64,000 bases of DNA, taken from an uncultured Gammaproteobacteria bacterium. Its GTDB lineage: Bacteria; Patescibacteriota; Patescibacteriia; UBA9934. The translations under genes were made by a program, and so were the position numbers. Below, piece after piece: positions 3,961 through 51,985 of this stretch. Below the pieces are notes generated by a model, which worked only from the letters and a program-made list of their open reading frames with translations, was not told the DNA's origin and did not search any database. Location: NCBI GenBank assembly GCA_964599455.1, contig CAZREA010000001.1:269183-333182 (forward strand), in the 5' to 3' direction. Position 1 is the stretch's first letter. Every line of letters starts with the position of its first letter.

Positions 3961-6564
3961 TTATGATAGCAAGGAGCGTTCGGGAAGGCGATGTGGTGCG
4001 AGGATAAATCGGCGTGCCAGTTCCAAACCGACCATTTTTAACACACTCAATAGGCCAACAACCATAATCCACGACCAGGTTGGCCAAACAAAACCAAAGA
4101 AACTCGCAACCGCAGGCCAAACCAGCAAACCAACCAACAATACGCCGCTCATCATGACAAACATCCATAATTCTTTGTTATAGGGTTGAGACATCTGTCC
4201 CAATCCCTGATCAAGACGTCGAAAAACAAAAATGAGCAACAGAGCATCAAGACCGATAGCAAAAAAGAGTATAGTCTGCATCATAGACAGAGGGAGTTGT
4301 CGCAGGGACAATGCGTACATGAGCGATAGCATTATCCCAGAAACAAAGATGCAAGCAATAATCGTAAAACGACGTAAAGATGGTTGTAAAATATGTTCAT
4401 GAGAAGAACGCGGCAACGAACGAGCAGTATTTTCCGTCACCCGTTCAAAAGCAAATCCAAGCGCCGGAAGTCCATCGCACACCACATTGAGCCATAAAAT
4501 TTGCAGGGCTGTAAGCGGCAACGGCAATCCCGTTAATAATGCGCCCGTGATAAGGAGAATTTCACTCAAACTAAAGGTTAATAAATACGCCGTCATGTTA
4601 CGGATATTGCTAAAAAGCAAACGCCCTTCACCAACGGCATCTACCAATGTTTGCAGCCGATTATCAAGAAGCACGATATCGGCCGTTTCTTTGGCAACAT
4701 CAGTCGCGCTACCCAAACTCACCCCAATATCAGCACGCTTCAGTGCTGGCGCATCATTCACTCCATCACCCGTCATGGCCACCACTTCTCCTGCCTGCTG
4801 CAATAATTGCACAATACGCATTTTATCTTCGGGATTGATGCGGGCAATAATATTGGCATACCGCAAGGCCTGTGTGAGTTCTCGATCAGCCATGTTGCGG
4901 ATCATTTCTCCGGTCAAGGCCGTACCGCTTTCAGAAAAACCTAAATCTTTAGCAATGCGCCAGGCAGTATCAGGATGATCACCAGTCAGCATCATGAAGC
5001 GAATTCCCAATGCACGAACGTTGGCAATCATCTCCTTGGCATCAACACGCAAGGGATCGATAAAACCCAAAAAACCAATAAAAGAAAAATCATGCAATGC
5101 ATCTTCGGATACTTCTCCATCTTTCGCAATCAACAACAAAACACGAAATCCTTTGGCGGTAAGATCTTTATGGCGATCATGTAATTCTTGCAATCGTGCA
5201 TCAGAAACATCGAGCGCAGGAAAAAGTATCTCCGGTGCCCCCATGAGCACCGTCTCCTTTTTCTGTGCACGCCCAAGAATCACGCCAGAATATTTTTTAT
5301 GACTATCAAACGCTATTTCTCGAAAAACTTCTCCTTCAACAAATCCTGCATGCAGCGCAACATATTGTGCAATCGCCTGCTCGGTTAATGACGATGCAAA
5401 CTGTGCATGCGTAGCTGCACCGCGCGACAAGGCATGTAAATACGTGAGCGACCGTGTTGATTGAGCAGTATCAAGCATCTGAAGCGTCATGTTGCCAGTA
5501 GTGAGTGTGCCCGTTTTATCGATACACATAATCGTCACCGAACCCAGTGTTTCCGCTGAAAGCAGACGACGAACAAGCGCTTGTTTTCCCAACATGCGAC
5601 GCATGCCTACTGCGAGCGTCATGGTAAAACCGATCAACAGGCCTTCGGGCACCGCCGCAACGGCAAGCGCGATACTCGTACTTAACATTTGCGAAGGATG
5701 AATCTCTTTCAGTACACCAAAAAGAAAAATAATGGCCGCAATCGCCAACGCAATAAGCGTGATTTGTCGTGAAAGGTGATGAAGATCTTTCGTGAGCGGT
5801 GTCGCCTGTTCACTAGCAGTTGCCGTCAACACGGCAAGTGATCCGAAAACGGTTTTTATTCCCGTAGCTACGACAATCGCCTCAGCCTTACCTCGTGCAA
5901 CGGTGGTGCCAGCAAAAATCATATTTTTGTGCTCTGCGTAGGCGGCAGAGGCGGCAACAGGTTCAATGCTTTTTTCCACTTCCGCACTCTCACCCGTCAA
6001 CGCCGCTTCATAGGTTGCAAAACTATGCACCGACAGCAATCGGGCATCAGCCGGAATCTTTGCACCTGCCGATAATAAAATAATGTCACCAGGAACGATG
6101 TCCGCCGCCTCAATCGACCGCACCTCTCCATCACGACGAACCAACGCCTTTTCTGAAATTAAATGTTGCAACGCAAACAGCGCTCGATCAGCACGATATT
6201 CCTGAAAAAATCCCAGGCCTGCATTAAGAAGCACAATGCACCCCGTTGCTATCGCATCCCACCATTCATGCAACAATAACGAGATGATAACCGCGATAGC
6301 GAGCAAGAGCGTAAACGGACTTTGTAATTGATGCCAAAAGATTTTCACCACCGAGGTCGGTCGAGAAATTTTCAAAATATTCCTCCCCGATGTCCGCAAT
6401 CGATTTACTGCTTCTTGATCAGAAAGCCCCAACACTGCGCCCTGTTGCAATCGAATAACATCAGCACTCTCGAGCACATGCCACGCATGACGTTCCTCCA
6501 TATAGGCAAAGTATAGCAAGGAAGCGCGTTGACAAAAACCGTTCTCAAGACTATAAACTTTCAT
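3961..6564 (-). CDS. P-type cation-transporting ATPase (P2-type, Ca2+/Mg2+-ATPase-like)
   Basis: 867 aa with TGES, CIDKTGTLT (phosphorylation site), PEGL and MTGDGVNDAPALKRADIGVSLG motifs, and about 10 TM helices. Confidence 0.85.
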   Translation of the reverse strand: MKVYSLENGFCQRASLLYFAYMEERHAWHVLESADVIRLQQGAVLGLSDQEAVNRLRTSGRNILKISRPTSVVKIFWHQLQSPFTLLLAIAVIISLLLHEWWDAIATGCIVLLNAGLGFFQEYRADRALFALQHLISEKALVRRDGEVRSIEAADIVPGDIILLSAGAKIPADARLLSVHSFATYEAALTGESAEVEKSIEPVAASAAYAEHKNMIFAGTTVARGKAEAIVVATGIKTVFGSLAVLTATASEQATPLTKDLHHLSRQITLIALAIAAIIFLFGVLKEIHPSQMLSTSIALAVAAVPEGLLIGFTMTLAVGMRRMLGKQALVRRLLSAETLGSVTIMCIDKTGTLTTGNMTLQMLDTAQSTRSLTYLHALSRGAATHAQFASSLTEQAIAQYVALHAGFVEGEVFREIAFDSHKKYSGVILGRAQKKETVLMGAPEILFPALDVSDARLQELHDRHKDLTAKGFRVLLLIAKDGEVSEDALHDFSFIGFLGFIDPLRVDAKEMIANVRALGIRFMMLTGDHPDTAWRIAKDLGFSESGTALTGEMIRNMADRELTQALRYANIIARINPEDKMRIVQLLQQAGEVVAMTGDGVNDAPALKRADIGVSLGSATDVAKETADIVLLDNRLQTLVDAVGEGRLLFSNIRNMTAYLLTFSLSEILLITGALLTGLPLPLTALQILWLNVVCDGLPALGFAFERVTENTARSLPRSSHEHILQPSLRRFTIIACIFVSGIMLSLMYALSLRQLPLSMMQTILFFAIGLDALLLIFVFRRLDQGLGQMSQPYNKELWMFVMMSGVLLVGLLVWPAVASFFGFVWPTWSWIMVVGLLSVLKMVGLELARRFILAPHRLPERSLLS

Positions 6565-6679
6565 TGATTACGCTTCTCTTTCTTTTATTGATCGGATGAT
6601 AAAGAAAGGCAGAGGAGGGCAATTGCGATAGTCGCATTGACTTTTATTCTCAACAACAACTGATAAGGAGTAACGAGTC

Positions 6680-7537
6680 ATGAGGTTCTTTATTCTGTTT
6701 TTTGTGAGCGTGGCCTTTGCCGCCACCGGCACGACGATGTCGACCTGTAACAACGGGTCCAAGCCCATCACCGAAGAGGCCGAGGAGAAACCCTGTTATC
6801 AAGACGACGATGGTGATGGCTTTGGTGGCGAGGAGTACACGGTTCGCCCGTGCAGCACCATGACCGAGTCCGAGGCTATCGTCAGCAACAATGACGACTG
6901 TGATGACGCGGATCCGAACGTCAATCCCGACGCTGACGAGTATTGCGACAGTATCGACAACGACTGTGATGACGAGGTGGATGAAGACAGTGCCAAAGAC
7001 GCCGATACCTGGATGCCAGACCTGGACGGCGACGGCTACGGCATCTACGAGGACTACGTGGTCACCTGCTATCGCCCGGCGGAAATGGCCAATCGAGGCG
7101 GCGACTGCGATGACACCGATCCCGAGGTCAACCCCGGGGAAAAGGAGCAGTGCGACGCGAGCAGCATCGACGACGACTGCGATGGTGCTGTGGACGAAGA
7201 ACAGGACGCCGATGAGGATGGCGCCAACGCCTGCGATGACTGCGACGACGACAACGATGATGCCTATCCAGACGCCGAAGAGGTGCCATCGGACATCAAC
7301 GATGTCGACGAGAACTGCGACGGCGTGGTCACCTGCTATCGCGACAACGACGGTGACGGCTACGGCACCGACGAAATTGTCGACGGTGACGGCTACTGCG
7401 ACACCTGGGACAATGAAGCCATCGAAAAGCAGACTGGGGATTGCGACGACTCACACGTCAACGTAAACCCCGGCGCCGAGGAGCTATGCAACGGCATCGA
7501 CGACAACTGCAATGACTACATCGACGAGCTCTGCTGA
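6680..7537 (+). CDS. Secreted, highly acidic Cys/Asp-rich repeat protein (putative metal-binding MopE-like DxDGDGYG / CDDxDPxVNPGAxExC repeats)
   Basis: Signal peptide MRFFILFFVSVAFAATG with AAGGAG RBS 8 nt upstream. Three repeats of [D-x-D-G-D-G-(Y/F)-G ... C-D-D-x-D-P-x-V-N-P-G-x-x-E-x-C-x-x-x-D-x-D-C-D...]. Locally GC-rich, driven by GAC/GGC codons. Confidence 0.6.
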   Translation: MRFFILFFVSVAFAATGTTMSTCNNGSKPITEEAEEKPCYQDDDGDGFGGEEYTVRPCSTMTESEAIVSNNDDCDDADPNVNPDADEYCDSIDNDCDDEVDEDSAKDADTWMPDLDGDGYGIYEDYVVTCYRPAEMANRGGDCDDTDPEVNPGEKEQCDASSIDDDCDGAVDEEQDADEDGANACDDCDDDNDDAYPDAEEVPSDINDVDENCDGVVTCYRDNDGDGYGTDEIVDGDGYCDTWDNEAIEKQTGDCDDSHVNVNPGAEELCNGIDDNCNDYIDELC

Positions 7538-8042
7538 TCTTTACTTTTTTTCCCATTCATCTAGGCTATCTCTGAGAGATTTTCATGACAGAAGTTCCTG
7601 ATGGCCACGGGAATAGACGTCGGGTCGAGATGTTGCCGCAACAACATCTCGGAAAAACCAGTGAAAAATCTCTCGGAGGTTAAGCCCTTATCCTTTTGTA
7701 AACCTATCGCCAACGTAAAGATTACCAGCGTACGATGACGGCTGATAGGAATGCTCGGGGAAAGGCAAGCTGCAAGGATCCAGCGGTTGGAGGTCCCGAA
7801 ATGGGACAGAGAACACGCGACAACGGTGCGTGACCCAACCAAGATTCGCCCGATGAAAGTTCGGGGAGGCGGCATCTTGAGGATGTCGTCAGGGGAATGA
7901 TGAAAGAAACTGCAGTGCGGATGCAGAACCAAAAGTCGTTCCCTCGCGTTTACGCGTTACGTGAACTCGCTCTCCCAAGGAGCGGGTTTCTTTATTGGCC
8001 GAGGTTGCAGAAGAAAACAGTTTTTGTTATCCTATCGACCGC

Positions 8043-8117
8043 GCGCTGGTAGCTCAGTGGTAGAGCAAAGGCCTTTTAAGCCTGTGGTCGTGGGTTCGAT
8101 CCCCACTCGGCGCACCA
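8043..8117 (+). tRNA. tRNA-Lys (anticodon UUU)
   Basis: Cloverleaf read by hand. Acceptor GCGCTGG / TCGGCGC (GU wobbles), D-arm GCTC-AGTGGTA-GAGC, anticodon stem-loop AAGGC-CTTTTAA-GCCTG (UUU at positions 34-36), T-arm GTGGG-TTCGATC-CCCAC, encoded CCA end. Confidence 0.85.
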
Positions 8118-8187
8118 AGAATATCTCTGGGAAAACCCCAGGGATTTTCTTTATTTCCCCATTTTTTTGTGAGAAAATAATCATCAT

Positions 8188-8841
8188 ATGAAAACCGTTG
8201 TTATTACCGGAGCAAGTCGCGGGATTGGCAAAGCGTTAGCCGAGAAATTTCTTGCCCAAGGTGACTTCGTGATCGGTACATCTCGCACCGGAACGTCGAG
8301 CAGTGAAGATGCCAATTTTCTGATGTTGCCTCTTGAGCTGAGGGACGCAAAGAGTATCGACCAATGCATCAATACTCTGATCGCTCTTAACAAGCCAATT
8401 GATATTCTTATCAACAATGCATGGACTTGGCATGAACAAGATAATGAAGCGACCATTGCTATCCCTGTATTGCGAGAGACGCTTGAAACCAATGTTTTTG
8501 GCGTGATTGCTTTAAGCGAACAAATCTCCGCTCTGATGAAGGACGGGTCCCAAATCATCAACATCAGCTCTCGCCGAGGATCGTGCGAACAAACAACAGA
8601 TACCCTCTATCCCTGCTACAGCATCGCCAAAGCCGCACTCAATATGTACACCAAAAAATTAGCCATGCGATTAAAAGAAAAAGTAACGGTGTCATGTGTG
8701 CATCCGGGATCGGTTCAAACCGACATGAATCCCGACGGAGAAATATCTGCAAAAGAATCAGCAAATGATATCTATCAACTCATCATGAACAACAAAGAAA
8801 CCGGGCAGTTTTGGTATAAGGGAGAAAAATTTCCTTGGTAG
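8188..8841 (+). CDS. Short-chain dehydrogenase/reductase (SDR) family oxidoreductase
   Basis: MKTVVITGASRGIGKALAEKF (TGxxxGIG) and YSIAKAAL (YxxxK catalytic motif). Confidence 0.85.
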   Translation: MKTVVITGASRGIGKALAEKFLAQGDFVIGTSRTGTSSSEDANFLMLPLELRDAKSIDQCINTLIALNKPIDILINNAWTWHEQDNEATIAIPVLRETLETNVFGVIALSEQISALMKDGSQIINISSRRGSCEQTTDTLYPCYSIAKAALNMYTKKLAMRLKEKVTVSCVHPGSVQTDMNPDGEISAKESANDIYQLIMNNKETGQFWYKGEKFPW

Positions 8842-8850
8842 ACTTAAAAA

Positions 8851-9333
8851 TCATCCAAAATCTTGACGAAAACAGTAAAAAGCCAAGGTCACTACATCGT
8901 GTTTTAAACCTATCGGCCAGATACCTATACGATCAAAAATTCCAGTAGAAAAATGTTTGTGATTACGAGTCAAAAGAAAAAGATTTTTTCCGTATCTTTT
9001 AAGCTGTGCAGCGATACAGCAGTCAGCTAATTCTGGTTCTGGCAATTTTCTAGCAGTATAAAAATGAGCGATATCTATAGCATCTTGAAATAATTTCTTC
9101 TCTCCGGCGATTGGTAAACATGTACATCCAAGAATAGCAAGATAATCAAGAATTCTCTTCTTATATTCTTCTTGATAAGCAGTTCTTAAAAATTCAAATT
9201 CAATAAAAGGATTATAGTGGAGCGAACAAGAAGAATCATCAAGAAATTGGAAAAGTTCTTTAAAGGGTTCAGGCGTCTGAAATGATTCGATAAGAACATT
9301 CGTGTCAAGAAGAACCGCTTTATGCTTCAACAA
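8851..9333 (-). CDS. PIN-domain ribonuclease (VapC-like toxin)
   Basis: ...KHKAVLLDTNVLIESF... classic PIN N-terminal motif. The longest ORF (to 9450) overlaps the upstream small gene by 130 nt. In-frame TTG TTG codons at 9333/9330 would give MLKHKAVLLDTNVLI and a ~14-nt overlap with the antitoxin stop. Start is uncertain (9333, 9369, 9393 or 9450). Confidence 0.6.
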   Translation of the reverse strand: MLKHKAVLLDTNVLIESFQTPEPFKELFQFLDDSSCSLHYNPFIEFEFLRTAYQEEYKKRILDYLAILGCTCLPIAGEKKLFQDAIDIAHFYTARKLPEPELADCCIAAQLKRYGKNLFLLTRNHKHFSTGIFDRIGIWPIGLKHDVVTLAFYCFRQDFG

Positions 9334-9490
9334 ATTCTTCAGTGTATTTTCCTGAGCGATATTGAGCATAAACCTCTCGACGAATTTTCTCATTTTCTTT
9401 GTAGAGCCGTTGCAAATCTTTTGCAACGACAAAATACTGATCCCAATCAATGGTTTTTTTCTCGACAGCTTTTTGAGAAAAAGTATTCAT
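9320..9490 (-). CDS. Small protein upstream of the PIN gene, candidate antitoxin (VapB-like)
   Basis: MNTFSQKAVEKKTIDWDQYFVVAKDLQRLYKENEKIRREVYAQYRSGKYTEEFVEA (~56 aa, start uncertain; longest ORF to 9523). It overlaps the PIN gene, which is typical type II TA architecture. Confidence 0.35.
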   Translation of the reverse strand: MNTFSQKAVEKKTIDWDQYFVVAKDLQRLYKENEKIRREVYAQYRSGKYTEEFVEA

Positions 9491-9562
9491 ATACCTAATC
9501 ATAACACAAAAAAAATTAAACACATCAAAAAGAAAAAGCCCCCGATGCGGACGGAACCGCTA

Positions 9563-9630
9563 TAAAACAACAAACCCCGCGTCGGAAACGACGAGCACTC
9601 CCGAGTTGGGGCTTGTCGTTTGATGCGGGG
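9563..9630 (-). terminator. Rho-independent terminator (nested GC hairpin plus U-run on the minus strand) downstream of gene 9660..10445
   Basis: ccccgcgtcggaaacgacgagc...gcttgtcgtttgatgcgggg inverted repeat, followed on the minus strand by TTTGTTGTTTTAT. Confidence 0.5.
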
Positions 9631-9659
9631 CTGAGAGATAGAAATTGCTCGTTGTCGAC

Positions 9660-10445
9660 CTACAGCTTCAGCAGCTCGCGCGCCTCCATGTGCGTGAACT
9701 GACGGCCGACGATACGGCGAGTGTAAGCGCCCTCTATGATCGAGACGACGAGGAAAATCCCGCCGTCCGAGGTGACGATGATTCGACGCACGTAAGTGGT
9801 GAGATTGATGAACGGATGCGCCGAGAAAACCTCGTCAAGGGTGAGCTCCACACGGTCAAGTGACGTATTGAACTCGATCCCGTCGGGGATGCCGAGGAGC
9901 TGAATGAGACGCTCGTCGGTGCAGTTACGGAAAAACTGCTCGTGGTTACTGTAGAAGAACTCGTCGTCGGGATTGATGGCCCGGCAATGAGCGAGTACGC
10001 CCCGATATCCCTCCGGTCCGGTAATCGGGAGCATGACGATGTCGTCGTCGCCCAGGGCGGCCTCGGCCTCCTTCTTGGTCAAGAAAATGCGGATCACCCG
10101 CCCGGTGCCGCGGGTCTGCACCCACTCTTCAGTGGACAGGATGACCCAGCGTGGAGCATCGTCGTCCTTGCCGGCATCGTCCCAGACGACGAGGACCTCA
10201 CGGCCATCGTCGTCTTCGTTGATTGCCAGGAAGAAGTAGACCGAACCCTCGTGGTCCTCCGCGTGAAGGACATTGCCCGTGGGGACGTTGTGAAACAGCT
10301 CGTTGTGACCGATAACGACGATCGTCAGCTTATCGTCGTCAGGGACTCGCGTTTCCCCTTCGCCGATCAGCTCGATCGCTTCGTAGAAGTCCTTGGAACC
10401 TTCCGGGAACACAAGCTCACCGTTACGAATGCGCAGCAGAGACAT
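9660..10445 (-). CDS. Hypothetical protein (GC-rich, acidic)
   Basis: Probable start MSLLRIRNGELVF at 10445, preceded by GGAGG. The longer ORF to 10547 is less likely. No motif recognised. About 60% GC versus the flanks. Confidence 0.5.
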   Translation of the reverse strand: MSLLRIRNGELVFPEGSKDFYEAIELIGEGETRVPDDDKLTIVVIGHNELFHNVPTGNVLHAEDHEGSVYFFLAINEDDDGREVLVVWDDAGKDDDAPRWVILSTEEWVQTRGTGRVIRIFLTKKEAEAALGDDDIVMLPITGPEGYRGVLAHCRAINPDDEFFYSNHEQFFRNCTDERLIQLLGIPDGIEFNTSLDRVELTLDEVFSAHPFINLTTYVRRIIVTSDGGIFLVVSIIEGAYTRRIVGRQFTHMEARELLKL

Positions 10446-10609
10446 GGGCACCTCCAAAGGTTTCGACACACCAGCGACAGCTGCTGTGGCCCTTAAGATT
10501 CTCGATTTCTTCAAGAACCCTGAGCGCGAAACGGCATACGTTACCAAGAAATGCTATTCTTGTCTACCTTTTACAAAAGATGAAATTTGATATAAAAGAG
10601 TAGAGAGGC

Positions 10610-11140
10610 ATGCAGCTGCATAGCGTAGCGCAATTACCTCGCATATCAGGAGTAACCGTGTCACGTGTATCTCTTCTCGTCCTTCTTACTGGATGCTTCA
10701 CCCTTCCCAAACCACAGGCGGTAGTGCTCGTCGAAACCACACCGCAATGGCCAACGGCGACGATCTTCCTCGAGATCGACGGACAGATGAGGAAGTGGGA
10801 AGGCGAGGATCTGACCTACGACGACCTGATGAGTCTCGACGACAACACCGTCGACACCGGTTCCTCGGTTATCACCGAGGCCGACCTGGCCATGGTCACC
10901 GCGTATGGCAACGACAAGGGCCACTACGGATGGGCGGAGCTCGCCTATTCGAATTGGACTGCGGAAGGTGGCGTGGTGAACCTCTGGGTCGACTATGCCG
11001 ATAGGGAGGGTAAACCCGACCCCACCAACCGGACCCGGGTCGCGTACCTCTACTGGGACGCGGAGGTGGAGTCGTGCTACAGCTTCCACGGGGCAAAAAA
11101 CCACGTGGTCATCTGCGGTGCTGATGAGGTCGCGGAGTAG
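10610..11140 (+). CDS. Putative lipoprotein (GC-rich), divergent from 9660..10445
   Basis: N-terminus VSLLVLLTGC gives an L-L-T-G-C lipobox after a hydrophobic stretch. No other motif recognised. Confidence 0.45.
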   Translation: MQLHSVAQLPRISGVTVSRVSLLVLLTGCFTLPKPQAVVLVETTPQWPTATIFLEIDGQMRKWEGEDLTYDDLMSLDDNTVDTGSSVITEADLAMVTAYGNDKGHYGWAELAYSNWTAEGGVVNLWVDYADREGKPDPTNRTRVAYLYWDAEVESCYSFHGAKNHVVICGADEVAE

Positions 11141-11264
11141 CCAGATCGTCTTCGAAGCCGGTCGTGTTGTCCGATGACACGACTGGCTTTTTGAAAACTT
11201 CTACATTCTCATCAAGCGCGACCGGTTCTTCGCAAAAAAGTATGCACGTGTTACCCTTTGTTTT

Positions 11265-12428
11265 ATGCAACGCTTTGAAACTCTCGTTATTGGCTTGGGT
11301 GCAATGGGAAGTGCGGCAGTCTATCAACTCGCAAAACGCGGCGCACATGTACTTGGCATTGATCAATACGCTCCTCCGCATACAATCGGTTCAACGCATG
11401 GGGAAACGCGTATTACGCGCCAAGCGATTGCCGAAGGTAAAGAATATGTTCCGCTTGTCCTCCGGGCAAATGCAATCTGGCGAGAGACCGAACAGCAAAC
11501 CGGCGCATCTCTTTTTGTTGCCAATGGGGGATGAATTGTAGGCGATGCTCACGTCACAAAAGGCAGTCACCAAACATACAATTTTCTTCTTGAAACTATC
11601 AACGCTGCAAAACACTACGCCATTCCTCATGAGATTCTTGATGCCCCTGCTTTGCAACAGCGCTTCCCGCAATTTCATTTTCATGGAAACGAAACAGGGT
11701 ACTATGAGAAGGGCGCTGGTTTTCTTCGTCCAGAACAATGTATCGAAACTCAACTTGCACTCGCAAAACACCATGGCGCTGAAATACATGTCAATGAAAA
11801 AATGATCTCCTATGCGTCGTCCGATAAAGGTATTATCGTTAAAACCAATAAAGATGAATATATAGCGCAAAAGATTATTCTCACTCTTGGTCCATGGATT
11901 CGGGAATCATTACCCGAGCTTGCACACTATTTTTCCGTTTATCGCCAGGTACTGTATTGGTTTAAAGTACATGACCGTCACGAACACTATTCACCTGATC
12001 GTTTCCCTATTTTTATTTTTGATTTCGGGCATGAAGCAGAATTTTACGGATTTCCGATTGTCGATACAGAAACGGGCGGATTGAAAATTGCCAAAGAAGA
12101 ATATCTTATCGATACTTCCCCCGAACAAGTCGATCGAAAAGTGTCGGCAGAAGAAATCGATCGCATGTTTATGCAGGCAAAGGAATATCTTCCCAATCTC
12201 AAAAACGAATGCATAAAAGCAATTTCGTGTCTCTACACCGTGACGCCCGATACAAAATTCGTCATTGATACCCATCCGCAAGACAAACGCATAATTATCG
12301 CCTCACCCTGTTCGGGGCACGGTTTTAAACATTCAGCTGCAATCGGTGAAGTACTTGCAGAATTAGCGACTACAGAAAAAAGTTCTCTCGATATTTCTTC
12401 ATTCTCTCTGCAAAGATTTACCAAGTAA
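11265..12428 (+). pseudogene. Monomeric sarcosine oxidase / N-methyl-L-tryptophan oxidase (SolA/MSOX) family FAD oxidoreductase interrupted by one in-frame TGA (11532-11534)
   Basis: N-terminal part [68 protein letters not shown] aligns to my recollection of SolA (IIGSGSVGAAAGYY...[32 protein letters not shown]). Both ORF pieces (11265..11534 and 11652..12428) are in the same frame (coordinate mod 3 = 0). The stretch between them translates cleanly (IVGDAHVTKGSHQTYNFLLETINAAKHY...). The C-terminal part carries the GHGFKHSAAIGE motif (SolA GHGFKFASVLGE). Confidence 0.55.
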
Positions 12429-12459
12429 GCATGAAAGTAATGGCAATAAAAAGAACGGG

Positions 12460-13017
12460 CTAGACTTGCTGTACAGAGTTACTTTTTTTCAATCGTTCCA
12501 TAAACGTCACATCTTTTTCATCAGCCGACGTATAGACACCTGTTTTGCTATCCAAATATCCCCACCCATTATGTAACACCGCGGGACCACAAGTCATACG
12601 AGTAACTGTGCCCGGCTGCACATTGATGACTCGATGAAACATATCGCGCGTAATGGTATTTACATCCCCCGCCCCAAACACCAGAACTTCATGGCAAACA
12701 TCACCATCATCACCAATCCAATACCGTTCTTCGGTATACCCACCGGAAAGAATCTCAGATGAAAAATCCCAAGGATGATTATGCGGCTCACCGCGATCAT
12801 CATCTTCATGCCACCAATTGATTTTAATGGTGCGCACGACAGCGTTGCGCTCAAGGACCAGCTGCGTTTTAAACGTATGCTCATTTGCGGTAGGAATGTA
12901 TTCAGGAGAAAGATTGGGATGTTGAATATGGTATATATCGATTGTCTCGCGAATCAGATGATCACACACGTTACACATTTCATAAATACTTTCTTGCGAG
13001 CAATACTTACAAAGCAT
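12460..13017 (-). CDS. Cupin-fold protein, thiol dioxygenase-like (PCO/ADO/CDO family), with an N-terminal C4 zinc-ribbon-like motif
   Basis: EPHNHPWDFSSEILSGGYTEERYWI matches the HxHP...(S/K)xL.G pattern of cysteamine/cysteine dioxygenases. N-terminal CKYC...CNVC. Confidence 0.4.
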   Translation of the reverse strand: MLCKYCSQESIYEMCNVCDHLIRETIDIYHIQHPNLSPEYIPTANEHTFKTQLVLERNAVVRTIKINWWHEDDDRGEPHNHPWDFSSEILSGGYTEERYWIGDDGDVCHEVLVFGAGDVNTITRDMFHRVINVQPGTVTRMTCGPAVLHNGWGYLDSKTGVYTSADEKDVTFMERLKKSNSVQQV

Positions 13018-13129
13018 AGAGATATTGTTATAAATACACAGAGTAGTATAGCCGATGAAAGGTATTCATCAAGAGGAAAGAAACAGGCAGCCCCGCAACC
13101 ACTCAAGGCGCGGGGCTTCGATGACGTGT

Positions 13130-13828
13130 TCACGTTGACAAGGCGATCCGTTCGGCGATCGTTTGAGCTTGGGCCAGACCCGCCAGCAAGGCGAACTGCT
13201 GGTCGGCGCGGTCGATGTTGTGACCGCTCATGTGTGCGCTGCCATCGATATGAAGAAATTGCCCGCAATAGAGAGCAGTGGCATTCCCAGGAATGGTGAG
13301 CGAGAGCCTGCCGTCCGTGGTCGCCTCGCTTTGGAAGGGATACTTCAGCCTACCATCGCCACGGACTCGATCCATGGTCTGTTTCATCATCAAGGCGATC
13401 GCGCCATGATCCTCTGCGGTGAACCGCTTCACGAGGCCGACCATACGACCCGACAGGGTTACCCCCACGTCATATCCGCTGTTGCCGCCCTGCGCCAGAA
13501 GACCCGTGAACGCCACGAGTGGCGCGTCCTCTTCGCTCCACTCCTCAAGCATCAGCGCAAGGCGAAGAACATCCAATGACCGGCTCGTCGCACTCGCAGA
13601 CTTTGCAGCAAAGGTGGCGGTGAAGACCAGTACTCCTTCGCGTGCTTCTTGACGCAAAACACCACGAAAGCCCCAGCGCCGAGGCCCTACGAAAAACGGC
13701 TCTTCTCCTTGGCGCAGATGGCGAACGATGGGAGCCTCTGCGGTGACACGCTTCACCAAACCCTCGAACGTCTTGGGAATCTCGGTCGCGATTCCCTCCT
13801 CCGTCGGAATCAATCGATATCGTTGCAT
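13130..13828 (-). CDS. Hypothetical protein (GC-rich)
   Basis: 232-aa ORF with protein-like composition. The antisense ORFs look spurious. No motif recognised. Confidence 0.45.
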   Translation of the reverse strand: MQRYRLIPTEEGIATEIPKTFEGLVKRVTAEAPIVRHLRQGEEPFFVGPRRWGFRGVLRQEAREGVLVFTATFAAKSASATSRSLDVLRLALMLEEWSEEDAPLVAFTGLLAQGGNSGYDVGVTLSGRMVGLVKRFTAEDHGAIALMMKQTMDRVRGDGRLKYPFQSEATTDGRLSLTIPGNATALYCGQFLHIDGSAHMSGHNIDRADQQFALLAGLAQAQTIAERIALST

Positions 13829-13901
13829 GAATGGCTATCCTCCGCCAAAAAGACTAGCCAAACAGCGTCAAAACAACAAGCCCCATTAGTCGCGGCAAGA
13901 T

Positions 13902-15707
13902 CTATCTTTTTAACACCTTTAAATAGGCATCTCCAGGAATATCAACATTCCCCACACCTAAAGACATCATCTTTTTCTTTCCTTTCTTTTGTTTTTGTAA
14001 TAATTTTAATTTTCGCGTGGCATCTCCACCATACAATCCCGCCGTCACATCTTTGCGCAACGCCGAAATTCGCTCACCGGCAACAACCTTGCCACCGACC
14101 GAGGCTTGCAACTTGATCACAAATTGGGTGCGAGGAATAGTCTCTTGCAAAATTTTCAAGATGCGACGACCGACACGCTCAGACTCATCGCGATACACCA
14201 AAGAGGAAAACGCATCCACCGGCGCGTCGGCAACCATAATATCCAGACGCACAATATCAGCTTGTCGATAGGCAAAGATTTCGTAACTCAATGACGCATA
14301 CCCTGCAGTTGCACTTTTGAGCTTATCATTAAAATCAACAATGATGGCAGATAATGGCAACTCATAATGCAACATGGCACGACCTTCAGAAAGATATTCG
14401 GTTGTTAAATACGTTCCATGTCGCTCCTGACACAATTGCATAACGTTCCCGATATAGTCCGACGGTGTGACAATCGCCACTTTTGCCCACGGCTCTTCGA
14501 TATGTTCGATGTGTGCGGGATCGGGCAAATCAAGCGCACCTTTCACCACATGATATACAGATTCTCCATTACGAAAGACACGATAAGCCACCGATGGCAA
14601 TGTCACGACCAAATCGATAGTATATTCACGTGAAAGACGCTCCTTCAAAATCTCTAAATGGAGCATGCCCAAAAATCCGCAACGAAAACCATATCCCAAT
14701 GCAGGCGAATGTTCGGGCTCGAATACCAATGCGGCATCGTTGAGCTTTAATCGATCCATGGCATCGCGCAGCGCACTGTATTCATCACCTTGTGCAGGAA
14801 AAACACCGGCGAAAACCATTGGTTTGACTTCACGATATCCTGAGAGGGGTTGGGCATACCCGACTCCTACATTCGTCGTCATCGTATCACCAACACGACA
14901 AGCACGGATATCTTTCAATCCGGTCACAATATAGCCGATTTGTCCGGTCTCTAATTCTTGAAGCGGAGAAAGCTTTGGCTTGAGTGCGCCAATTTCTAAA
15001 ATTTCGCCTTCACCGTTGGTTGCTAACATGTGCAACTTATCGTGTTTGCGGAATGCGCCATCAATCACGCGCACATAGGCAATAACACCTTTGTAGTCAT
15101 CGTATGCGGAATCAAAAATAAGTGCTCGCGGCGCTGATGCTACTTCACCTTTTGGTGATGAGATGCGTTCAACAACCGCATCAAGCAGTGCCGGCACTCC
15201 TTCACCCGTCTTTCCCGATACAGCAAAAATTTCTTCTGGTTTGCATCCGAGTAATTTTACTAATTCAGCAGTACGTCGCGGAATATCCGCAGCCGGAAGA
15301 TCAATTTTATTAAGGACCGGAATGATTTCCAAATTTTCTTCCATCGCTAAAAATAAGTTCGCGACAGTCTGTGCCTGAATACCTTGTGTTGCATCAACCA
15401 ATAGCACAGCTCCGTCAACCGCAGCCAGCGACCGCGACACTTCGTAAGTAAAATCGATGTGGCCAGGAGTATCGATGAGATTGAGCGTATATTCGACGTC
15501 ATCTTTTTTCCAATTCATGCGTGCAGGAGCAAGCTTGATAGTAATACCGCGCTCACGTTCAAGATCCATGGAGTCGAGCAGTTGATCTTTCATGTTGCGA
15601 CGCTCAACGGTACCCGTAATCTCAAGCAAACGATCGGACAAGGTAGACTTACCGTGATCAATATGCGCGATAATGCAGAAGTTACGAATGCGATCCTGAG
15701 GAACCAT
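13902..15707 (-). CDS. lepA: Elongation factor 4 (translational GTPase LepA)
   Basis: NFCIIAHIDHGKSTLSDRLL G1 motif, DTPGHIDF, NKIDL, and the LepA-specific C-terminal domain. 601 aa. Confidence 0.9.
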   Translation of the reverse strand: MVPQDRIRNFCIIAHIDHGKSTLSDRLLEITGTVERRNMKDQLLDSMDLERERGITIKLAPARMNWKKDDVEYTLNLIDTPGHIDFTYEVSRSLAAVDGAVLLVDATQGIQAQTVANLFLAMEENLEIIPVLNKIDLPAADIPRRTAELVKLLGCKPEEIFAVSGKTGEGVPALLDAVVERISSPKGEVASAPRALIFDSAYDDYKGVIAYVRVIDGAFRKHDKLHMLATNGEGEILEIGALKPKLSPLQELETGQIGYIVTGLKDIRACRVGDTMTTNVGVGYAQPLSGYREVKPMVFAGVFPAQGDEYSALRDAMDRLKLNDAALVFEPEHSPALGYGFRCGFLGMLHLEILKERLSREYTIDLVVTLPSVAYRVFRNGESVYHVVKGALDLPDPAHIEHIEEPWAKVAIVTPSDYIGNVMQLCQERHGTYLTTEYLSEGRAMLHYELPLSAIIVDFNDKLKSATAGYASLSYEIFAYRQADIVRLDIMVADAPVDAFSSLVYRDESERVGRRILKILQETIPRTQFVIKLQASVGGKVVAGERISALRKDVTAGLYGGDATRKLKLLQKQKKGKKKMMSLGVGNVDIPGDAYLKVLKR

Positions 15708-26472: not shown

Positions 26473-27270
26473 TTACCCGTAGATCGTAACCCAAAGCAAG
26501 AACACACCAAGCGCAATGCGATACAGGGCAAACCAACGGAAACCACCTTTTTCAATGACCGACAACAAAAATCTGATCGCAAAAACACCCGACAAAAAAG
26601 CAGTGACACAGCCAACAAGCAAAGCACCCACCGAAACATCAAGTCCCGTTTGTGCAACATCAACCGCAGTCAGCAATCCTGCTCCGGCAATCGCCGGAAT
26701 GGCAAGGAGAAAAGAAAACGTCGCTGCCGTTTTTCGATCAAGTCCCGCCAACAGTCCAACGCTCATGGTTATGCCCGAACGTGAAACGCCAGGAATAAGG
26801 GCGACTGCTTGCGCAACACCAATCCCAATTGCTAACGGCCACGACGTTTTATCATCACGCATCACCGATCGCGGATAGTGCGCAGCTACATAATCCGCAA
26901 TCCACAACACCATTCCCCACACAATCAACATCGTCGCCACAACCGATAATGTCCGCTGCGCTTCAAGCCAATCGCCGGCAAGAACACCAAAGACGGCCGC
27001 AGGAATGGTAGCAAGGATGATTTTGAGCAAAAACCGCTGCGCTCCTTTGTCACCTTTTTTAATCTCGTACCACCACGCACTGATGCGCGGCCAAAGAGCA
27101 ACGAATATTGCTCCGAGCGTTGCCAAATGCACCGCTACATCAAACGTTAAACTATGAATATCCCATCCTAACAAGTCAGGAAATAAAATAAGATGACCAG
27201 AACTGGAGATAGGTAAAAATTCCGTGAGACCTTGTACTATTCCAAGAATCGCGGCTTGGAAGAGCGTCAT
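26473..27270 (-). CDS. uppP: Undecaprenyl-diphosphatase
   Basis: MTLFQAAILGIVQGLTEFLPISSSGHLIL and 8 TM helices, as in the BacA/UppP family. Confidence 0.9.
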   Translation of the reverse strand: MTLFQAAILGIVQGLTEFLPISSSGHLILFPDLLGWDIHSLTFDVAVHLATLGAIFVALWPRISAWWYEIKKGDKGAQRFLLKIILATIPAAVFGVLAGDWLEAQRTLSVVATMLIVWGMVLWIADYVAAHYPRSVMRDDKTSWPLAIGIGVAQAVALIPGVSRSGITMSVGLLAGLDRKTAATFSFLLAIPAIAGAGLLTAVDVAQTGLDVSVGALLVGCVTAFLSGVFAIRFLLSVIEKGGFRWFALYRIALGVFLLWVTIYG

Positions 27271-29228
27271 ATATCTTTTAGTGAATGATCGTTTTGCAAC
27301 GGTGTTGCATTTGGGATGGTGGGATGCGGAAGCGAAGCTAAAGGATTCACCATCAATGGTGAAGACGATCCACTCATTGCACTTCCTGGCTTCTTTTTGC
27401 GGCGACGTTTACGTTTTTTCTTCGCTCCATCATCAACATGATTGTTTTCTGTACGCTCAGAACTAAAAGAAAGATCGTCACGCTCTTGCTGATGATTGTA
27501 TTCAACAGTTGATGACGTGGATGGTATTTGTGTCGACCGAGGTTCGGATTGCAATGCCGATAACGGCGCCGAGGCTGCAACTGGTCTTTCAATTATTGCC
27601 CCATCGGACACTTTTGCCGGAGCAAAAATAACCGGTCCTTTTTGTACTTTACGCATGTCCGCTTTTTCTTTTGCCTTTTGGCGTTCGGCATCAACGATAG
27701 GCTTGCATTCTTCACAATAAATCGGACGCGAACGATCGAGTTCAACCGGCAATAAGAATTTTTTGCCACATCGCGTACAGTCGTATTCGTGACTGTAACG
27801 CAACTTCTTGGCTTCTTTTTTCGCATCACGCACTTCGGCAAGTTTTTCTTCAACATTCACATCATCACCAAAACCACTCCACGTTACCACATGGTCTTCA
27901 ATCATCTTGCGATTGCCGCCGTAACGCTCACGTGATTGTTCAATAACTTTTTGCGCACTGAAAGTTCGCTGTGCAATGGGAGGTAAAGTAGTAGCGGAAA
28001 ATGGTTGACTCGTCACGCCATCAATCATGAGTTTGACGTAGATACCAATTTTTGGCAGCTCAATAAGATCCTGAGCCGTAAAGCGGGGCATGAATTCAGG
28101 TTCAAGGAAAAGACTATCCGGCGAACCCACACGAAAAGTGATCATGGTACCCACGTTACCGAACACCGCATCGCGCACTTCTTCGGACAGCTGGGCAATG
28201 TATTGATGCGCCAAAATAAGATTCAATCGATATTTACGCGCCTCAGACAAAATCGTCGCAAATGATTCAACGGCAAAGTTTTGAAATTCATCAACGTACA
28301 AGTAAAAATCTTTGCGATCTTTTTCGGGCATGTCGACCCGTTCCATGGCAGAAATCTGCACCTTGGTAATGAGCATGCCGCCCAACAAGCGCATCGCTTC
28401 GTCACCATTTCGTCCCTTTGATAAGTTCACAATAAAAATCTTTTCATTGTCCATGATGTCGCGCAAATTCAAAGAACTTTTTGCCTGCGCAACAATATTG
28501 CGTATAACCGCCGATGAAATAAATTGTCCGACTTTATTTTGAATTGGCGCTACAGCTTCTGAGGCGAACTTTGAATCGTAGGCTGCAAACTCTTGCACCC
28601 AAAATTGCTTCACGATCGGATCTTTGATGTTTTTAATGATCTCGAGACGATAATCCTTGTCCGACAACATGCGATTGATACCAAGAAGTGTGGAGCCAGG
28701 CGTATCGAGTAATGCCTTCACGGTGTTATTGAGAATATATTCCATGCGCGCGCTCCACACATTTTCCCAAATCTTTTTAAAGACCGACAACAATGATGAT
28801 GCAATACGTTCTTTTTCTTCCGTAAGTAAATCAACCGGCAAATCATGATTTACCTCAAGAACGTTGAAGGCGATCGGATTATCAAAATCAGCAGGATTGA
28901 AATAGACAACATCATTAATGCGCCACGAAGGAATGAAGTCAATCAATTTTTCGGCCGTGTCACCGTGCGGATCAATATAACAGCAGCCGTGCCCCGCATA
29001 GACGTCCGACAAAAACATGTTCTCCATGAGCGTGGTTTTGCCCATACCCGTCTTACCGATAATGTACATGTGGCGACGGCGATCATCGGTTTTGATGCCA
29101 AACTTGCGCATGGCATTGCGAAAATTTGTTTGGGCAAAATGCGTAACATGCTGCTCATGATCATACTGAAACGAACCATCTCCTGATGGTTTTGTGGGCT
29201 TTACTGCATCGTCATGGACATCGTGCAT
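27267..29228 (-). CDS. FtsK/HerA/TraG-superfamily P-loop ATPase, T4SS coupling-protein-like (TraG/VirD4/TraD family), soluble, with C-terminal zinc ribbon and basic S/T-rich tail
   Basis: YIIGKTGMGKTTLMENM (Walker A). YLYVDEFQNFAVESF (Walker B D-E). ARKYRLNLILAHQYIAQL matches the TraG-D_C-like sensor. YDCTRCGKKF...YCEECKP ribbon. KKKRKRRRKKK tail. No TM segments. Confidence 0.55.
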   Translation of the reverse strand: MHDVHDDAVKPTKPSGDGSFQYDHEQHVTHFAQTNFRNAMRKFGIKTDDRRRHMYIIGKTGMGKTTLMENMFLSDVYAGHGCCYIDPHGDTAEKLIDFIPSWRINDVVYFNPADFDNPIAFNVLEVNHDLPVDLLTEEKERIASSLLSVFKKIWENVWSARMEYILNNTVKALLDTPGSTLLGINRMLSDKDYRLEIIKNIKDPIVKQFWVQEFAAYDSKFASEAVAPIQNKVGQFISSAVIRNIVAQAKSSLNLRDIMDNEKIFIVNLSKGRNGDEAMRLLGGMLITKVQISAMERVDMPEKDRKDFYLYVDEFQNFAVESFATILSEARKYRLNLILAHQYIAQLSEEVRDAVFGNVGTMITFRVGSPDSLFLEPEFMPRFTAQDLIELPKIGIYVKLMIDGVTSQPFSATTLPPIAQRTFSAQKVIEQSRERYGGNRKMIEDHVVTWSGFGDDVNVEEKLAEVRDAKKEAKKLRYSHEYDCTRCGKKFLLPVELDRSRPIYCEECKPIVDAERQKAKEKADMRKVQKGPVIFAPAKVSDGAIIERPVAASAPLSALQSEPRSTQIPSTSSTVEYNHQQERDDLSFSSERTENNHVDDGAKKKRKRRRKKKPGSAMSGSSSPLMVNPLASLPHPTIPNATPLQNDHSLKDI

Positions 29229-29237
29229 AGCAGAAAA

Positions 29238-30827
29238 CTAAAAAGGGAGATTCTCGGGAGGTTCAGCGGGATCGGTAGATGGATGCGTAGGAGTCGGGGT
29301 CGTCGGCGAGACCGCTGCATGCTCGACTGCCGCAGATCGCGGCCAAAGACCATCCGCAGTCGGCTGTTGCACCATCGATCCTGCGTGATGACCTCCCATG
29401 GCCGGATTTTCATAGGTATTGACGGCGGTACCACGACGATCTAAATACACTCGCTTCCAATCATCAGTCGATGGTTCGCGACTTTCTTCGCCCATAGGAG
29501 CCAAAGGTGCCGAAGGTAATTGAAAAGGCGCTTCAGCACGTCGTGCGCCCATAGCCGTGAGCACCGGCGTTCGCGCGTCAGCCGAGGGGAAGTGAAAAAT
29601 CGTTGCCAATTCTTCTGCATTCAAAATACAGGGATTCGCACCCGCGCCAAACGAACGCGATGCATAGCGCTGTGCAAGAATCGATTGTTTTTTAGCGTAT
29701 GTCCATTCCTGATAAAAATAATCATTCTTTGGCACCGATGGACCATGCGTGGAAAGTTGGTTTAGTAGCGGATTAGTAAAAGGCTGGAATGCACCCTTCA
29801 TGCCAGCAGCAAAAATACCCTTGCGGAACTTTCCTTTTGGCCCAACCCCAATCCAACGAATCTTCGCTTTCCATCCCACTTTTGAAACCTTTTCAGCAAC
29901 GGCATCAATCTGTTTTTTATCAGCTGGTGTGAGCTTGAACATGCGAAAATCATCGCTCTTTTTGGTATCGGCTTTTTCGGCCCCACCACCACTACCCATC
30001 AACTGCTGCGCGACACCTACCGGAAACCACATAATGCCCTCCATCATGGCATCAAGGCCGCTTTTTTTAGGAGCTTTGGTTTCCTTGCCCATAATGGCCG
30101 CCAAAAAGGCGAGTCCATCTTTAATCCAGCCATCATCAGAAGGTGGTTTGATGATCAGCTGTATCCACAAATGCTCGCCCGGTTGCATTTTACCCATCAG
30201 CTCTAAAATCGGCAGGAGCGGGTCTTTGAACCGATTTTCTTTTTCGCCCATGTGTTCAAAATCTTCGAATGTGCGAATAGGCAAATAATCAGGTTTGCCA
30301 AGCACAATCTCGCCACCAAATAATTCCTGATCGTCATTCGGATATCGCTTGGCTACCAAGCCTGTATAATCAGGGACTTCGGTAATTTGCGCTTCCGGAT
30401 ACTGTGCGTACAAATCAGCCTCGATCAAATCACGATATTTATCCTGCGTACGAATAACAAAAGAAATATCCCCACCATTACTGATAATTTCAAACGAAAA
30501 ACGTGCCTGATCTTTCCCCAACAACCAAATTTCTTTCCAGGTTAAACCACTTTTAGCGCCAGCCATGTTGGAAAAAAAGTTTTCCATACCTTTTGGCGTT
30601 TGAATGCTTGTTTGCGGCACGCGGACTTCGAGATTAATCCAATGCAAATGATGCTCGTATTGCTCCATTTTGTAGTCGAGCCACAAGTGGGAGAATCCCC
30701 AAACGATAATAGCCAAAATAGGCAGCGGTCCAATAATCAGGAGCACATAGGCCAGCAATGTATCGGGAGGAATGGTATCTAAAAACCGTGTTACTTCCGG
30801 AGGAATGTTGAGCACGATGGCAAGCAT
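29238..30827 (-). CDS. Membrane-anchored protein of unknown function, co-operonic with the ATPase (10-nt spacing)
   Basis: N-terminal TM LLAYVLLIIGPLPILAIIVWGF followed by a large ~480-aa domain. No motif recognised. Confidence 0.45.
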   Translation of the reverse strand: MLAIVLNIPPEVTRFLDTIPPDTLLAYVLLIIGPLPILAIIVWGFSHLWLDYKMEQYEHHLHWINLEVRVPQTSIQTPKGMENFFSNMAGAKSGLTWKEIWLLGKDQARFSFEIISNGGDISFVIRTQDKYRDLIEADLYAQYPEAQITEVPDYTGLVAKRYPNDDQELFGGEIVLGKPDYLPIRTFEDFEHMGEKENRFKDPLLPILELMGKMQPGEHLWIQLIIKPPSDDGWIKDGLAFLAAIMGKETKAPKKSGLDAMMEGIMWFPVGVAQQLMGSGGGAEKADTKKSDDFRMFKLTPADKKQIDAVAEKVSKVGWKAKIRWIGVGPKGKFRKGIFAAGMKGAFQPFTNPLLNQLSTHGPSVPKNDYFYQEWTYAKKQSILAQRYASRSFGAGANPCILNAEELATIFHFPSADARTPVLTAMGARRAEAPFQLPSAPLAPMGEESREPSTDDWKRVYLDRRGTAVNTYENPAMGGHHAGSMVQQPTADGLWPRSAAVEHAAVSPTTPTPTHPSTDPAEPPENLPF

Positions 30828-31813: not shown

Positions 31814-33847
31814 TTAGAGGCCAAGAAAGAAGAGGCGTGAACGAATGCGTTTCACCGGCGCGAGTAAGAACAAAATGCTGCGGGTGATTTTAAAGGTGGT
31901 GAAGATAGAAAGCAGCACACCAATACTGAGTGTTAACGCAAAGCCACGAATAAAGCCCGTGCTCATGCTATACAACACCGCCGTCGCAATCAGCGTGGTG
32001 AAATTTCCATCACGAATAGACGGCCAGGCACGACGGAAGGCTTCATCGAGTGCCGTGGGCAAATCTCGTCCAGCACGAAGCTCTTCTTTCAACCGCTCAA
32101 ACACCAACACATTTGCATCAACGGCAATGCCAAGCGACAAGATAAAGCCCGCAATACCCGACAAGGTCATGGTGACACCAAAAATCTTATAGAGCACAAT
32201 GTTGAGTCCTGCATACATCGCCAACGCAATCACCGCTACCAAACCGGCCAGGCGATAATAGGCGATCATGAAAACGGCAATCAGCGCAAAACCTACAAGT
32301 CCAGCCATCACACTTTGATCAAGTGATTCCTGACCGAGTGTTGGTCCAATCGTTTGCTGAGAAAGCAGATTGATAGGAACTGGCAATGCACCGGCATTCA
32401 AACGCTGCGCCAAAAGCTTTGCATCTTGTGGAGTAAAATCACCGGTAATACTTGCCTGACCACCATAAATTGCCTGCTGTACCACAGGAGTAGTGATCGG
32501 CTCACTGTCTAGGAAGATTCCAATCACATTGCCCACATTTGCCGCAGTGAGGTCGGCAAAAAGCTGGGCACCTTCATCGTTAAACGTTAGAGCAACATAC
32601 GGCTGGCCAGTGGTCGGATCAAATGCAACTGCTGCGGTCTTAATATGTTTTCCGGAAAGCTCCGTATTTTCCCACGGGTCGATCGATACGACATCAGATA
32701 CCGTTGTCCAGGGCATTTCGATGTGGGAAATTTCGTAGGCCTTGATCGTTTTACTATCTTGGCGATAGATGAGGTGATAACCAAAATCCGTTTCAACGAC
32801 TTCAGAAATACGACCGTCACGTAGTGCAAAAAGCGCATCATTGAATGACTGCACCATATCGCCTTCATTTACCCATCCCAAATCCCCACCCACATCTTTA
32901 CTGCCCGGATCATCAGAATGCTCTTTGGCAAGATCAACAAAATTTGCTGTTGTGGCTTCGATCTTTAATGAGTCAATGAGCGCACGCGCCTCATCACGAC
33001 TACGGTCTTGCGTACAGCCCTTGGCTCCCATGTAACAAATAAGAATATGAGAAGACTGCACCTGTGTACGATTTTCTGAGCTCACATAATTCACAATGTG
33101 CATGCGTGAGGTACCTTCGTACAATCCATCAATCACGCCGGTACGCAAACGATCTGCAGCAATACGATCTGCTAAACCTCCATACTCTTCATCTTCCGAG
33201 GTCACGAAACCGACGTAGCCATTGGCGTCTTTGGTCAGTGTATCAATGGAATACTGTTTGGCGAGAGCACTAAAATCGGCATTCTTTTGCAAGGCCTCGT
33301 CAAGAACTTTCAAAGCAGCTTCGCGTTCATTCTTTTGCGCTTCGTCAACTTTTGCTTGATCATCAATAGTTGGCTCAGCCGTAACATTCTCTTTGGGAAT
33401 TTTGAATTCAAGAACAGGAGTTTCACCAATTTGCGCCACCGCATCGGTTACATTGGTCAGTCCAGGAAGATCGACGATCACGCGATATCCGTTCGTCGAA
33501 TTCGTTGCTTGCACGTATGCCTCAGAAACACCAAAAGCATTCACACGGCGCTCAATGACGTCGCGTACGCCTTCGAGTGCCTGCGATCGATCAGTTTCGG
33601 TAATATTGCCCATGTCGGCCTCATACACCAAATGGGCTCCGCCTTGCAGATCAAGACCGAGTCGCAGACCTTCATCAGGAATATACGGGAAATGAAAACC
33701 AACACGCTCATCAAGCCATTGCATGGCTGCATTATATGGCCCAGGAACACTTCCTACGCCCGCAAAAAGAAAGATGACAAGTAACCCCACCGCTGTCCAC
33801 TTGGCCCGGCGGCGACCAGCCGCAGCCTGCTGCACATACTTATTCAT
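31814..33847 (-). CDS. secD: Protein translocase subunit SecD with an embedded PpiC-type (parvulin) PPIase domain
   Basis: SecD periplasmic and TM domains. Internal ...DVGGDLGWVNEGDMVQSFNDALFALRDGRISEVVETDFGYHLI... parvulin domain. Start MNKYVQQ at 33847; the longest ORF runs to 33946. Confidence 0.8.
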   Translation of the reverse strand: MNKYVQQAAAGRRRAKWTAVGLLVIFLFAGVGSVPGPYNAAMQWLDERVGFHFPYIPDEGLRLGLDLQGGAHLVYEADMGNITETDRSQALEGVRDVIERRVNAFGVSEAYVQATNSTNGYRVIVDLPGLTNVTDAVAQIGETPVLEFKIPKENVTAEPTIDDQAKVDEAQKNEREAALKVLDEALQKNADFSALAKQYSIDTLTKDANGYVGFVTSEDEEYGGLADRIAADRLRTGVIDGLYEGTSRMHIVNYVSSENRTQVQSSHILICYMGAKGCTQDRSRDEARALIDSLKIEATTANFVDLAKEHSDDPGSKDVGGDLGWVNEGDMVQSFNDALFALRDGRISEVVETDFGYHLIYRQDSKTIKAYEISHIEMPWTTVSDVVSIDPWENTELSGKHIKTAAVAFDPTTGQPYVALTFNDEGAQLFADLTAANVGNVIGIFLDSEPITTPVVQQAIYGGQASITGDFTPQDAKLLAQRLNAGALPVPINLLSQQTIGPTLGQESLDQSVMAGLVGFALIAVFMIAYYRLAGLVAVIALAMYAGLNIVLYKIFGVTMTLSGIAGFILSLGIAVDANVLVFERLKEELRAGRDLPTALDEAFRRAWPSIRDGNFTTLIATAVLYSMSTGFIRGFALTLSIGVLLSIFTTFKITRSILFLLAPVKRIRSRLFFLGL

Positions 33848-33920
33848 AGTTGGAGGGATAGTAGCAGAGGAAAGAAAGACGGGTAAAGAGGAATCAGGGG
33901 ATGAAGAGAGAAAATTTGTT

Positions 33921-47566: not shown

Positions 47567-47651
47567 CAGCGAGCTTTTCTTCATTGACAGCAAGTGACTT
47601 TTCCGCTACAGTCAGCGGTCTTCTCTTACAAAAACAAGGAGGGAGAGAGAC

Positions 47652-48652: not shown

Positions 48653-48666
48653 GACTACGACTCGAA

Positions 48667-48712
48667 ACCCGCTATGTCGTTCGCGAACGATATGGCGGGT
48701 TCACTGTCTTAA
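48667..48712 (+). terminator. Rho-independent terminator of paralog A
   Basis: acccgctatgtcgttcgcgaacgatatggcgggt (17-bp stem including GU pairs) followed by tcactgtctt. Confidence 0.55.
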
Positions 48713-48808
48713 AAAGAGATTGCTGGATCCCCGTAACATTGACGAAAGGGGATTTTTTATTTACCTTAAATAGTCTTCTTGAGTTCACAGAAACGAAGGA
48801 GTGAAGAC

Positions 48809-49273: not shown

Positions 49274-49306
49274 ACATAGCCACTCCCGGACTTGGGAGTG
49301 GCTCGA

Positions 49307-51903: not shown

Positions 51904-51985
51904 GGGGGTGGGATCGTATAACGAAGCCCCGTCTGGACCGAGTCCAGACGGGGCGTTCTGCTTTTATAGGAATACTTTTACCAAC

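Follow-up and report, generated by a model that had tools for sequence, protein, structure and literature searches.

The closest described systems are the sarcosine oxidases of the MSOX type, represented by the Bacillus structures 1el5 and 1zov and by 7exs, and the N-methyl-L-tryptophan oxidase SolA (MTOX) of E. coli, represented by the structure 2uzz and the NCBIfam model NF008425. Cys315 of MSOX and Cys308 of MTOX are the attachment site of covalent 8-alpha-S-cysteinyl FAD, and we take the roles of Cys315 and Lys265 to be those known from the MSOX literature. Members of this family are encoded by an uninterrupted coding sequence of ~370-400 aa, which is lacking in the solA-like gene described here, with its in-frame TGA at codon 90. 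An in-frame UGA within an oxidoreductase gene also recalls the bacterial selenoprotein genes (e.g., fdhF), in which UGA-Sec is accompanied by a SECIS element and Sec positions align with Cys in homologs.

The solA-like gene lies in a 64-kb stretch of DNA taken from an NCBI contig of 480,967 bp; the whole stretch was analysed and is referred to as the window. It is read on the forward strand as a single frame of 388 codons (11265-12428), in which the TGA at 11532-11534 is the lone internal stop and a TAA at 12426-12428 is the terminal one; the frame contains neither a frameshift nor a second premature stop (Table 1). The ORF list splits the gene into an 89-aa ORF (11265-11534) and a 258-aa ORF beginning at TTG 11652, with 39 sense codons between them. 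This TTG (codon 130) is the first in-frame start 3' of the TGA, and the next is an ATG at codon 180. The initial annotation had described a sarcosine-oxidase-family gene with one in-frame TGA and an otherwise intact frame, and had counted 39 codons from the TGA to the annotated downstream start. The count is correct, and the translation and the Pfam, NCBIfam, and PDB matches bear out the description of the gene. A promoter and terminator scan around the gene returned nothing notable.

Table 1. Coordinates of the solA-like gene, its component parts, and the genes and segment that surround it in the window.
Feature	Position	Strand	Remarks
N-terminal 89 codons, MSOX/MTOX (SolA)-family gene	11265..11531	+	Sole part expected to be translated; ATG 11265 aligns with homolog starts
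GLGAMG dinucleotide (FAD)-binding motif (GxGxxG), residues 10-15	11292..11309	+	Coordinates computed from the frame
Premature TGA, codon 90	11532..11534	+	116/120 homologs have Leu in this column; TTA inferred as ancestral
Remaining 297 codons and TAA	11535..12428	+	Frame unchanged and family-like; 73/75 strongly conserved columns kept
Cys322 codon TGT, 3' of the TGA	12228..12230	+	Aligns with the covalent-FAD Cys315 of MSOX
Lineage-specific GC-mosaic segment of 7.3 kb holding the solA-like gene	6565..13901		~1.1 kb in relatives
tRNA-Lys(UUU)	8043..8117	+	Only feature of the LepA-ATPase interval conserved in relatives
LepA (EF4), core gene	13902..15707	-	Synteny and taxonomy anchor
P-type cation ATPase, core gene	3961..6564	-	Opposite flank of the variable segment

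When the TGA is read through, the translation matches the Pfam model DAO (PF01266) in one continuous alignment spanning residues 7-367 (149.8 bits vs. a cutoff of 27.9, E = 1.9e-43), and the N-methyl-L-tryptophan oxidase model NF008425 over residues 2-386 with 447.1 bits, against a curated cutoff of 257. The score against TIGR01377 (soxA_mon) is 280 bits, under the cutoff of 480. The best PDB matches are chains of MSOX or sarcosine oxidase (1el5, 1zov, 7exs; residues 3-387, E = 1e-70 to 1e-67), and residues 3-385 are matched by E. coli MTOX 2uzz (E = 2.7e-60). Since homology runs through the TGA in one stretch, it is genuine homology and not a chance open frame. Judged by its sequence, the gene is a member of the MSOX/MTOX family.

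The residues expected of such an enzyme are encoded on both sides of the stop. In an alignment of 26 sequences, G10, L11, G12, A13, and G15 of the GxGxxG motif are invariant, as is C322, whose context (aisCLYT) pairs with gavCMYT of 1el5/1l9c/1zov; Lys274, which aligns with MSOX Lys265, is intact. The solA-like gene resembles SolA/MTOX in its full-length profile match, its GxGxxG motif, and its flavinylation Cys, and differs from it in the TGA at codon 90 and in its host, a CPR bacterium rather than an enterobacterium. MSOX is likewise matched over the whole length, including equivalents of Cys315 and Lys265 in C322 and K274, but the gene scores below the TIGR01377 cutoff, has Glu278 where MSOX has His269, and is cut by a stop. 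The Glu at the MSOX His269 position is invariant across the solA-like subfamily, in which it sits inside a conserved K-I-A-x-E-x-Y motif. Going by the alignment, Glu278 and this motif may mark a subclass of the MSOX/MTOX family with a distinct substrate or mechanism.

The closest relatives of the gene are found in the MAG GCA_040384045.1 (60% identity) and in Candidatus Peregrinibacteria CP064962.1 (58%), a complete genome of the CPR type in which the homolog is annotated as N-methyl-L-tryptophan oxidase. Both belong to the same subfamily and length class and carry Leu at the stop column, encoded by CTG and CTT, respectively. In contrast to the solA-like gene, they are uninterrupted, and their neighborhoods are unrelated to it, without synteny with the window. 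More distant solA homologs are spread across many phyla. The collections searched hold no ortholog above 60% identity save short N-terminal fragments, and protein-guided scans of genome and metagenome contigs recovered homologs at up to 57% identity, plus short N-terminal fragments at 74-79%. An exact-DNA search of genome and metagenome contigs with a 39-mer around the stop, its codon wild-carded, gave no match.

The identity of the residue that the TGA replaces is well defined among homologs. We searched 5.8 billion proteins and aligned the best 120 homologs, which range from 377 to 431 aa and share 51-60% identity with the query; the stop column is occupied by Leu (116 sequences), Val (2), or Ala (2), with Cys, Gly, and Trp all absent. 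It is preceded by Gly-Gly, the first Gly being present in 120/120 and the second in 116/120. The initial annotation had placed the stop between the SGV of SolA and the I that follows it, and this placement is about right: the stop aligns with the hydrophobic residue following Gly-Gly. Of 45 homologous genomic loci, one has a gap at the column and the others have a codon for L, V, I, or Y, in no case TGA; all 45 are free of stops within the aligned segment covering codon 90. TTA is the sole one-step neighbor of TGA that encodes Leu, the two being separated by one transversion. It is used at this codon by a homolog from a low-GC CPR bacterium (Gottesmanbacteria), and accounts for 2 of the 28 Leu codons of the solA-like gene. 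We infer from these codons that the simplest history would be a change from TTA to TGA.

To judge the age of the lesion, we considered columns conserved when at least 95% of the homologs agreed. Of these conserved positions, the query keeps 39 of the 41 that precede the stop and 73 of the 75 that follow it, and its two downstream mismatches compare with a mean of 1.15 and a 75th percentile of 2 when intact homologs are left out one at a time, an absence of decay that fits equally a gene that is still functional through read-through or an error in the sequence. With 73 of the 75 downstream positions kept, no frameshift, and no second stop, the stop would be very young, and the lesion looks recent by this measure.

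We consider the solA-like gene to be a genuine nonsense pseudogene, fixed or dominant in the sampled population, with a probability of roughly 0.85. The features that characterize such a pseudogene are present: there is same-frame homology on both sides of the stop, the stop replaces a conserved sense codon that is one step away, and the lesion is reproduced in the assemblies of SRR16481182 and SRR16481183. The initial annotation had offered three readings, namely a very recent nonsense mutation, a sequencing error, and a recoded UGA. Only the first is upheld; the second conflicts with the recovery of the same base in two assemblies, and the third with the Leu column, the lack of a SECIS element, and the use of TGA as a stop.

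If the TGA were a sequencing or assembly error, the true codon would be a sense codon (TTA) and the gene would be intact, as might be suspected from the good preservation of the rest of the gene and from the fact that one base change would restore it. However, the 89-aa product is called as a gene in the Logan assemblies of both runs, and the contigs across the stop match the window at 100% identity for 11,808 bases (SRR16481182) and 4,111 bases (SRR16481183); these runs are neighboring accessions that may share a community, and thus represent independent read sets but not independent populations. The literature yielded no publication on either run. The identical base in two per-run assemblies argues against an error, as does the nature of the change, which is a substitution and not a homopolymer indel. 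Moreover, the conceptual intact protein, with L, W, G, C, R, or S at codon 90, has no exact match among ~15 billion catalogued proteins. We regard an error as extremely unlikely. A population polymorphism, in which the TGA is the assembled consensus while an intact allele co-exists and the gene is segregating rather than fixed, is rather unlikely but deserves more weight. A very recent origin of the stop makes incomplete fixation plausible, and a minority intact allele in the population is possible; against this, both per-run consensus assemblies carry the TGA and the intact allele is absent from the catalogued proteins. This reading refines the nonsense-pseudogene explanation more than it competes with it.

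Translation beyond or after the stop might rescue the gene in two other ways. A full-length active oxidase could still be made if UGA were decoded through selenocysteine insertion, a suppressor tRNA, or read-through of a leaky or programmed kind. The lack of any decay signal 3' of the stop would agree with this, termination in model bacteria is not at its strongest when UGA is followed by A, and UGA is reassigned in some sister lineages within the CPR (Gracilibacteria, Absconditabacteria). Decoding is nevertheless very unlikely. The column is Leu, Val, or Ala in every one of the 120 homologs, never the Cys or Sec, Gly, or Trp that selenocysteine or a reassigned code would call for, and TGA occupies the codon at none of the 45 loci. 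The 69 nt from the UGA onward fold no better than shuffled sequences (-9.8 kcal/mol vs. a shuffle mean of -8.85, z = -0.38), Rfam gave no match at E <= 10 besides noise, and tRNA-Lys is the only tRNA in the 64-kb window. Conserved genes of the window make genuine use of TGA as a stop: of the 33 long ORFs, 9 terminate in it, among them the ORFs for RecJ, MurG, a pseudouridine synthase, and an S41 peptidase, all four spanning their Pfam domains in full, as well as the VirD4-like gene, whose end overlaps the ATG of bacA as ATGA at 27267-27270. A scan with only TAA and TAG as stops extended or joined no other conserved gene of the window through a TGA. The initial annotation had noted that many long ORFs stop at TGA, that no obvious SECIS-like hairpin follows the codon, and that a genome-wide UGA=Gly code is unlikely, and the counts, the fold, and a column that is never Gly agree with it on all three. 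Selenocysteine was rejected on the combined lack of a SECIS-like fold, an Rfam match, any Cys in the column, and a window tRNA besides tRNA-Lys. Code 25 (Gly) and code 4 (Trp) were rejected because TGA ends conserved genes, no other conserved gene of the window has an internal TGA, and the column is Leu/Val. Thus, unlike the bacterial selenoprotein genes, the solA-like gene has no SECIS-like hairpin, no Cys or Sec at the column, and no sel genes among the annotated ORFs of the window; no prfB was seen in the window either. That the UGA is read through or recoded usefully in this Patescibacteria lineage, e.g., via a suppressor or near-cognate tRNA or because the UGA reassignment of related CPR phyla is here beginning in a single gene, is exceedingly doubtful.

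Alternatively, the gene could have become a functional split gene, in which the N-terminal 89 aa assemble with a C-terminal piece made by re-initiation into an active enzyme. Gene callers do predict the 258-aa ORF from TTG 11652, and both pieces are well conserved. However, a restart there loses residues 90-129, including the invariant T111, A115, I120, H122, and L125; the best 120 homologs are all single proteins of at least 377 aa; and no split relatives were found in the protein-guided contig scans or at the 45 loci. Shine-Dalgarno evidence is uninformative for the restart, since conserved genes of the window generally lack such motifs: only 1 of 13 has even a 4-mer upstream, a sign that translation in this lineage may initiate without SD motifs. 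We consider a split enzyme unlikely and the least probable of the readings weighed here.

For the nonsense pseudogene, the course of events would be simple. A single T-to-G transversion at 11533 would have turned TTA (Leu) into TGA, and ribosomes would be expected to terminate after residue 89 (Gly89). Of the FAD domain, the released product would contain no more than the first Rossmann beta-alpha-beta element; the catalytic domain and the flavinylation Cys322 would be missing, so that no active oxidase would be made. Overall, the solA-like gene is a new, divergent member of a well-known family (at most 60% identity to anything known), and most likely a fresh pseudogene.

The locus that holds the gene differs from the corresponding one in relatives. 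LepA, whose best catalogued match is 85% identical, has its named matches in the Patescibacteria group and Candidatus Uhrbacteria, and with many ORFans, genes for cell division and peptidoglycan, SecDF, and a VirD4-like ATPase, the window has a gene content typical of the CPR. The closest relatives share the gene order pseudouridine synthase, MnmA, LepA, tRNA-Lys, P-type ATPase, and Mur ligases, and in those with an 85%-identical LepA, the ~1.1 kb between LepA and the ATPase comprises tRNA-Lys and two small ORFs. In the window, by contrast, the corresponding segment (6565-13901) varies in GC from 0.43 to 0.58 and, besides tRNA-Lys and the solA-like pseudogene, encodes a MopE-like protein, an SDR, a weakly PIN-like product, and four ORFans. 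The ORFs of this segment gave no tblastn match to the loci of the relatives, and no solA homolog stands beside LepA in the closest ones. The segment bears no signature of an integrative island, in that neither a repeat of the tRNA-Lys 3' end nor an integrase was found. The solA-like gene is probably an accessory, horizontally acquired passenger of this variable segment, a setting in which its loss would be tolerated.

In one relative, GCA_964582615.1, an unrelated 420-aa flavoprotein of the amine-oxidase type (PF01593/PF01266; 11815-13077) lies directly beside LepA, so that the variable slot is filled there by another FAD oxidase. This related Patescibacteria genome (LepA 85% identical) is also present in SRR16481183, the same run as the window organism. 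The MopE-like gene of the variable segment (6680-7537, forward strand) encodes a 285-aa protein with four putative Cu-binding motifs of the MopE type (PF11617) and internal DNA repeats, and has a GC content of 0.58 vs. roughly 0.46 for the genome.

Several other features of the window were observed outside the variable segment. SecD (31814-33946, reverse strand; 710 aa) carries a parvulin-type PPIase (Rotamase_3, residues 286-397) between the first P1 segment and the P1 head, an unusual arrangement in which a foldase domain is fused to a translocon subunit. The region 27267-30827 on the reverse strand encodes a type IV coupling ATPase of the VirD4/TrwB-like type (653 aa), with a 529-aa ORF without a Pfam match upstream; GCA_964582615.1 shares the arrangement of the VirD4-like ATPase with BacA, and there the neighbor is DUF8128. 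Two GC-rich patches (47500-49300 and 50980-52280, up to 0.61) have long overlapping ORFs on both strands without a Pfam match; either strand may be the coding one, and it is possible that they encode CPR-specific surface proteins.

For annotation, the 89-aa and 258-aa ORFs are best joined into a single entry marked as a pseudogene, and not counted as two DAO-domain proteins. The in-frame TGA of the solA-like gene should not be read as a sign that this CPR lineage uses an alternative genetic code. If codon 90 were read through, the oxidase would still be made, which would explain the preservation 3' of the stop, and only if read-through were demonstrated would the gene have a bearing on how UGA reassignment starts in CPR bacteria. 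As a nonsense pseudogene, it would be dispensable for a reduced-genome organism and would have taken only the initial step of the gene decay typically seen in small CPR genomes. This is otherwise ordinary biology of little wider weight; its main use is correct annotation, and it captures cleanly how gene loss begins in a bacterium with a reduced genome.
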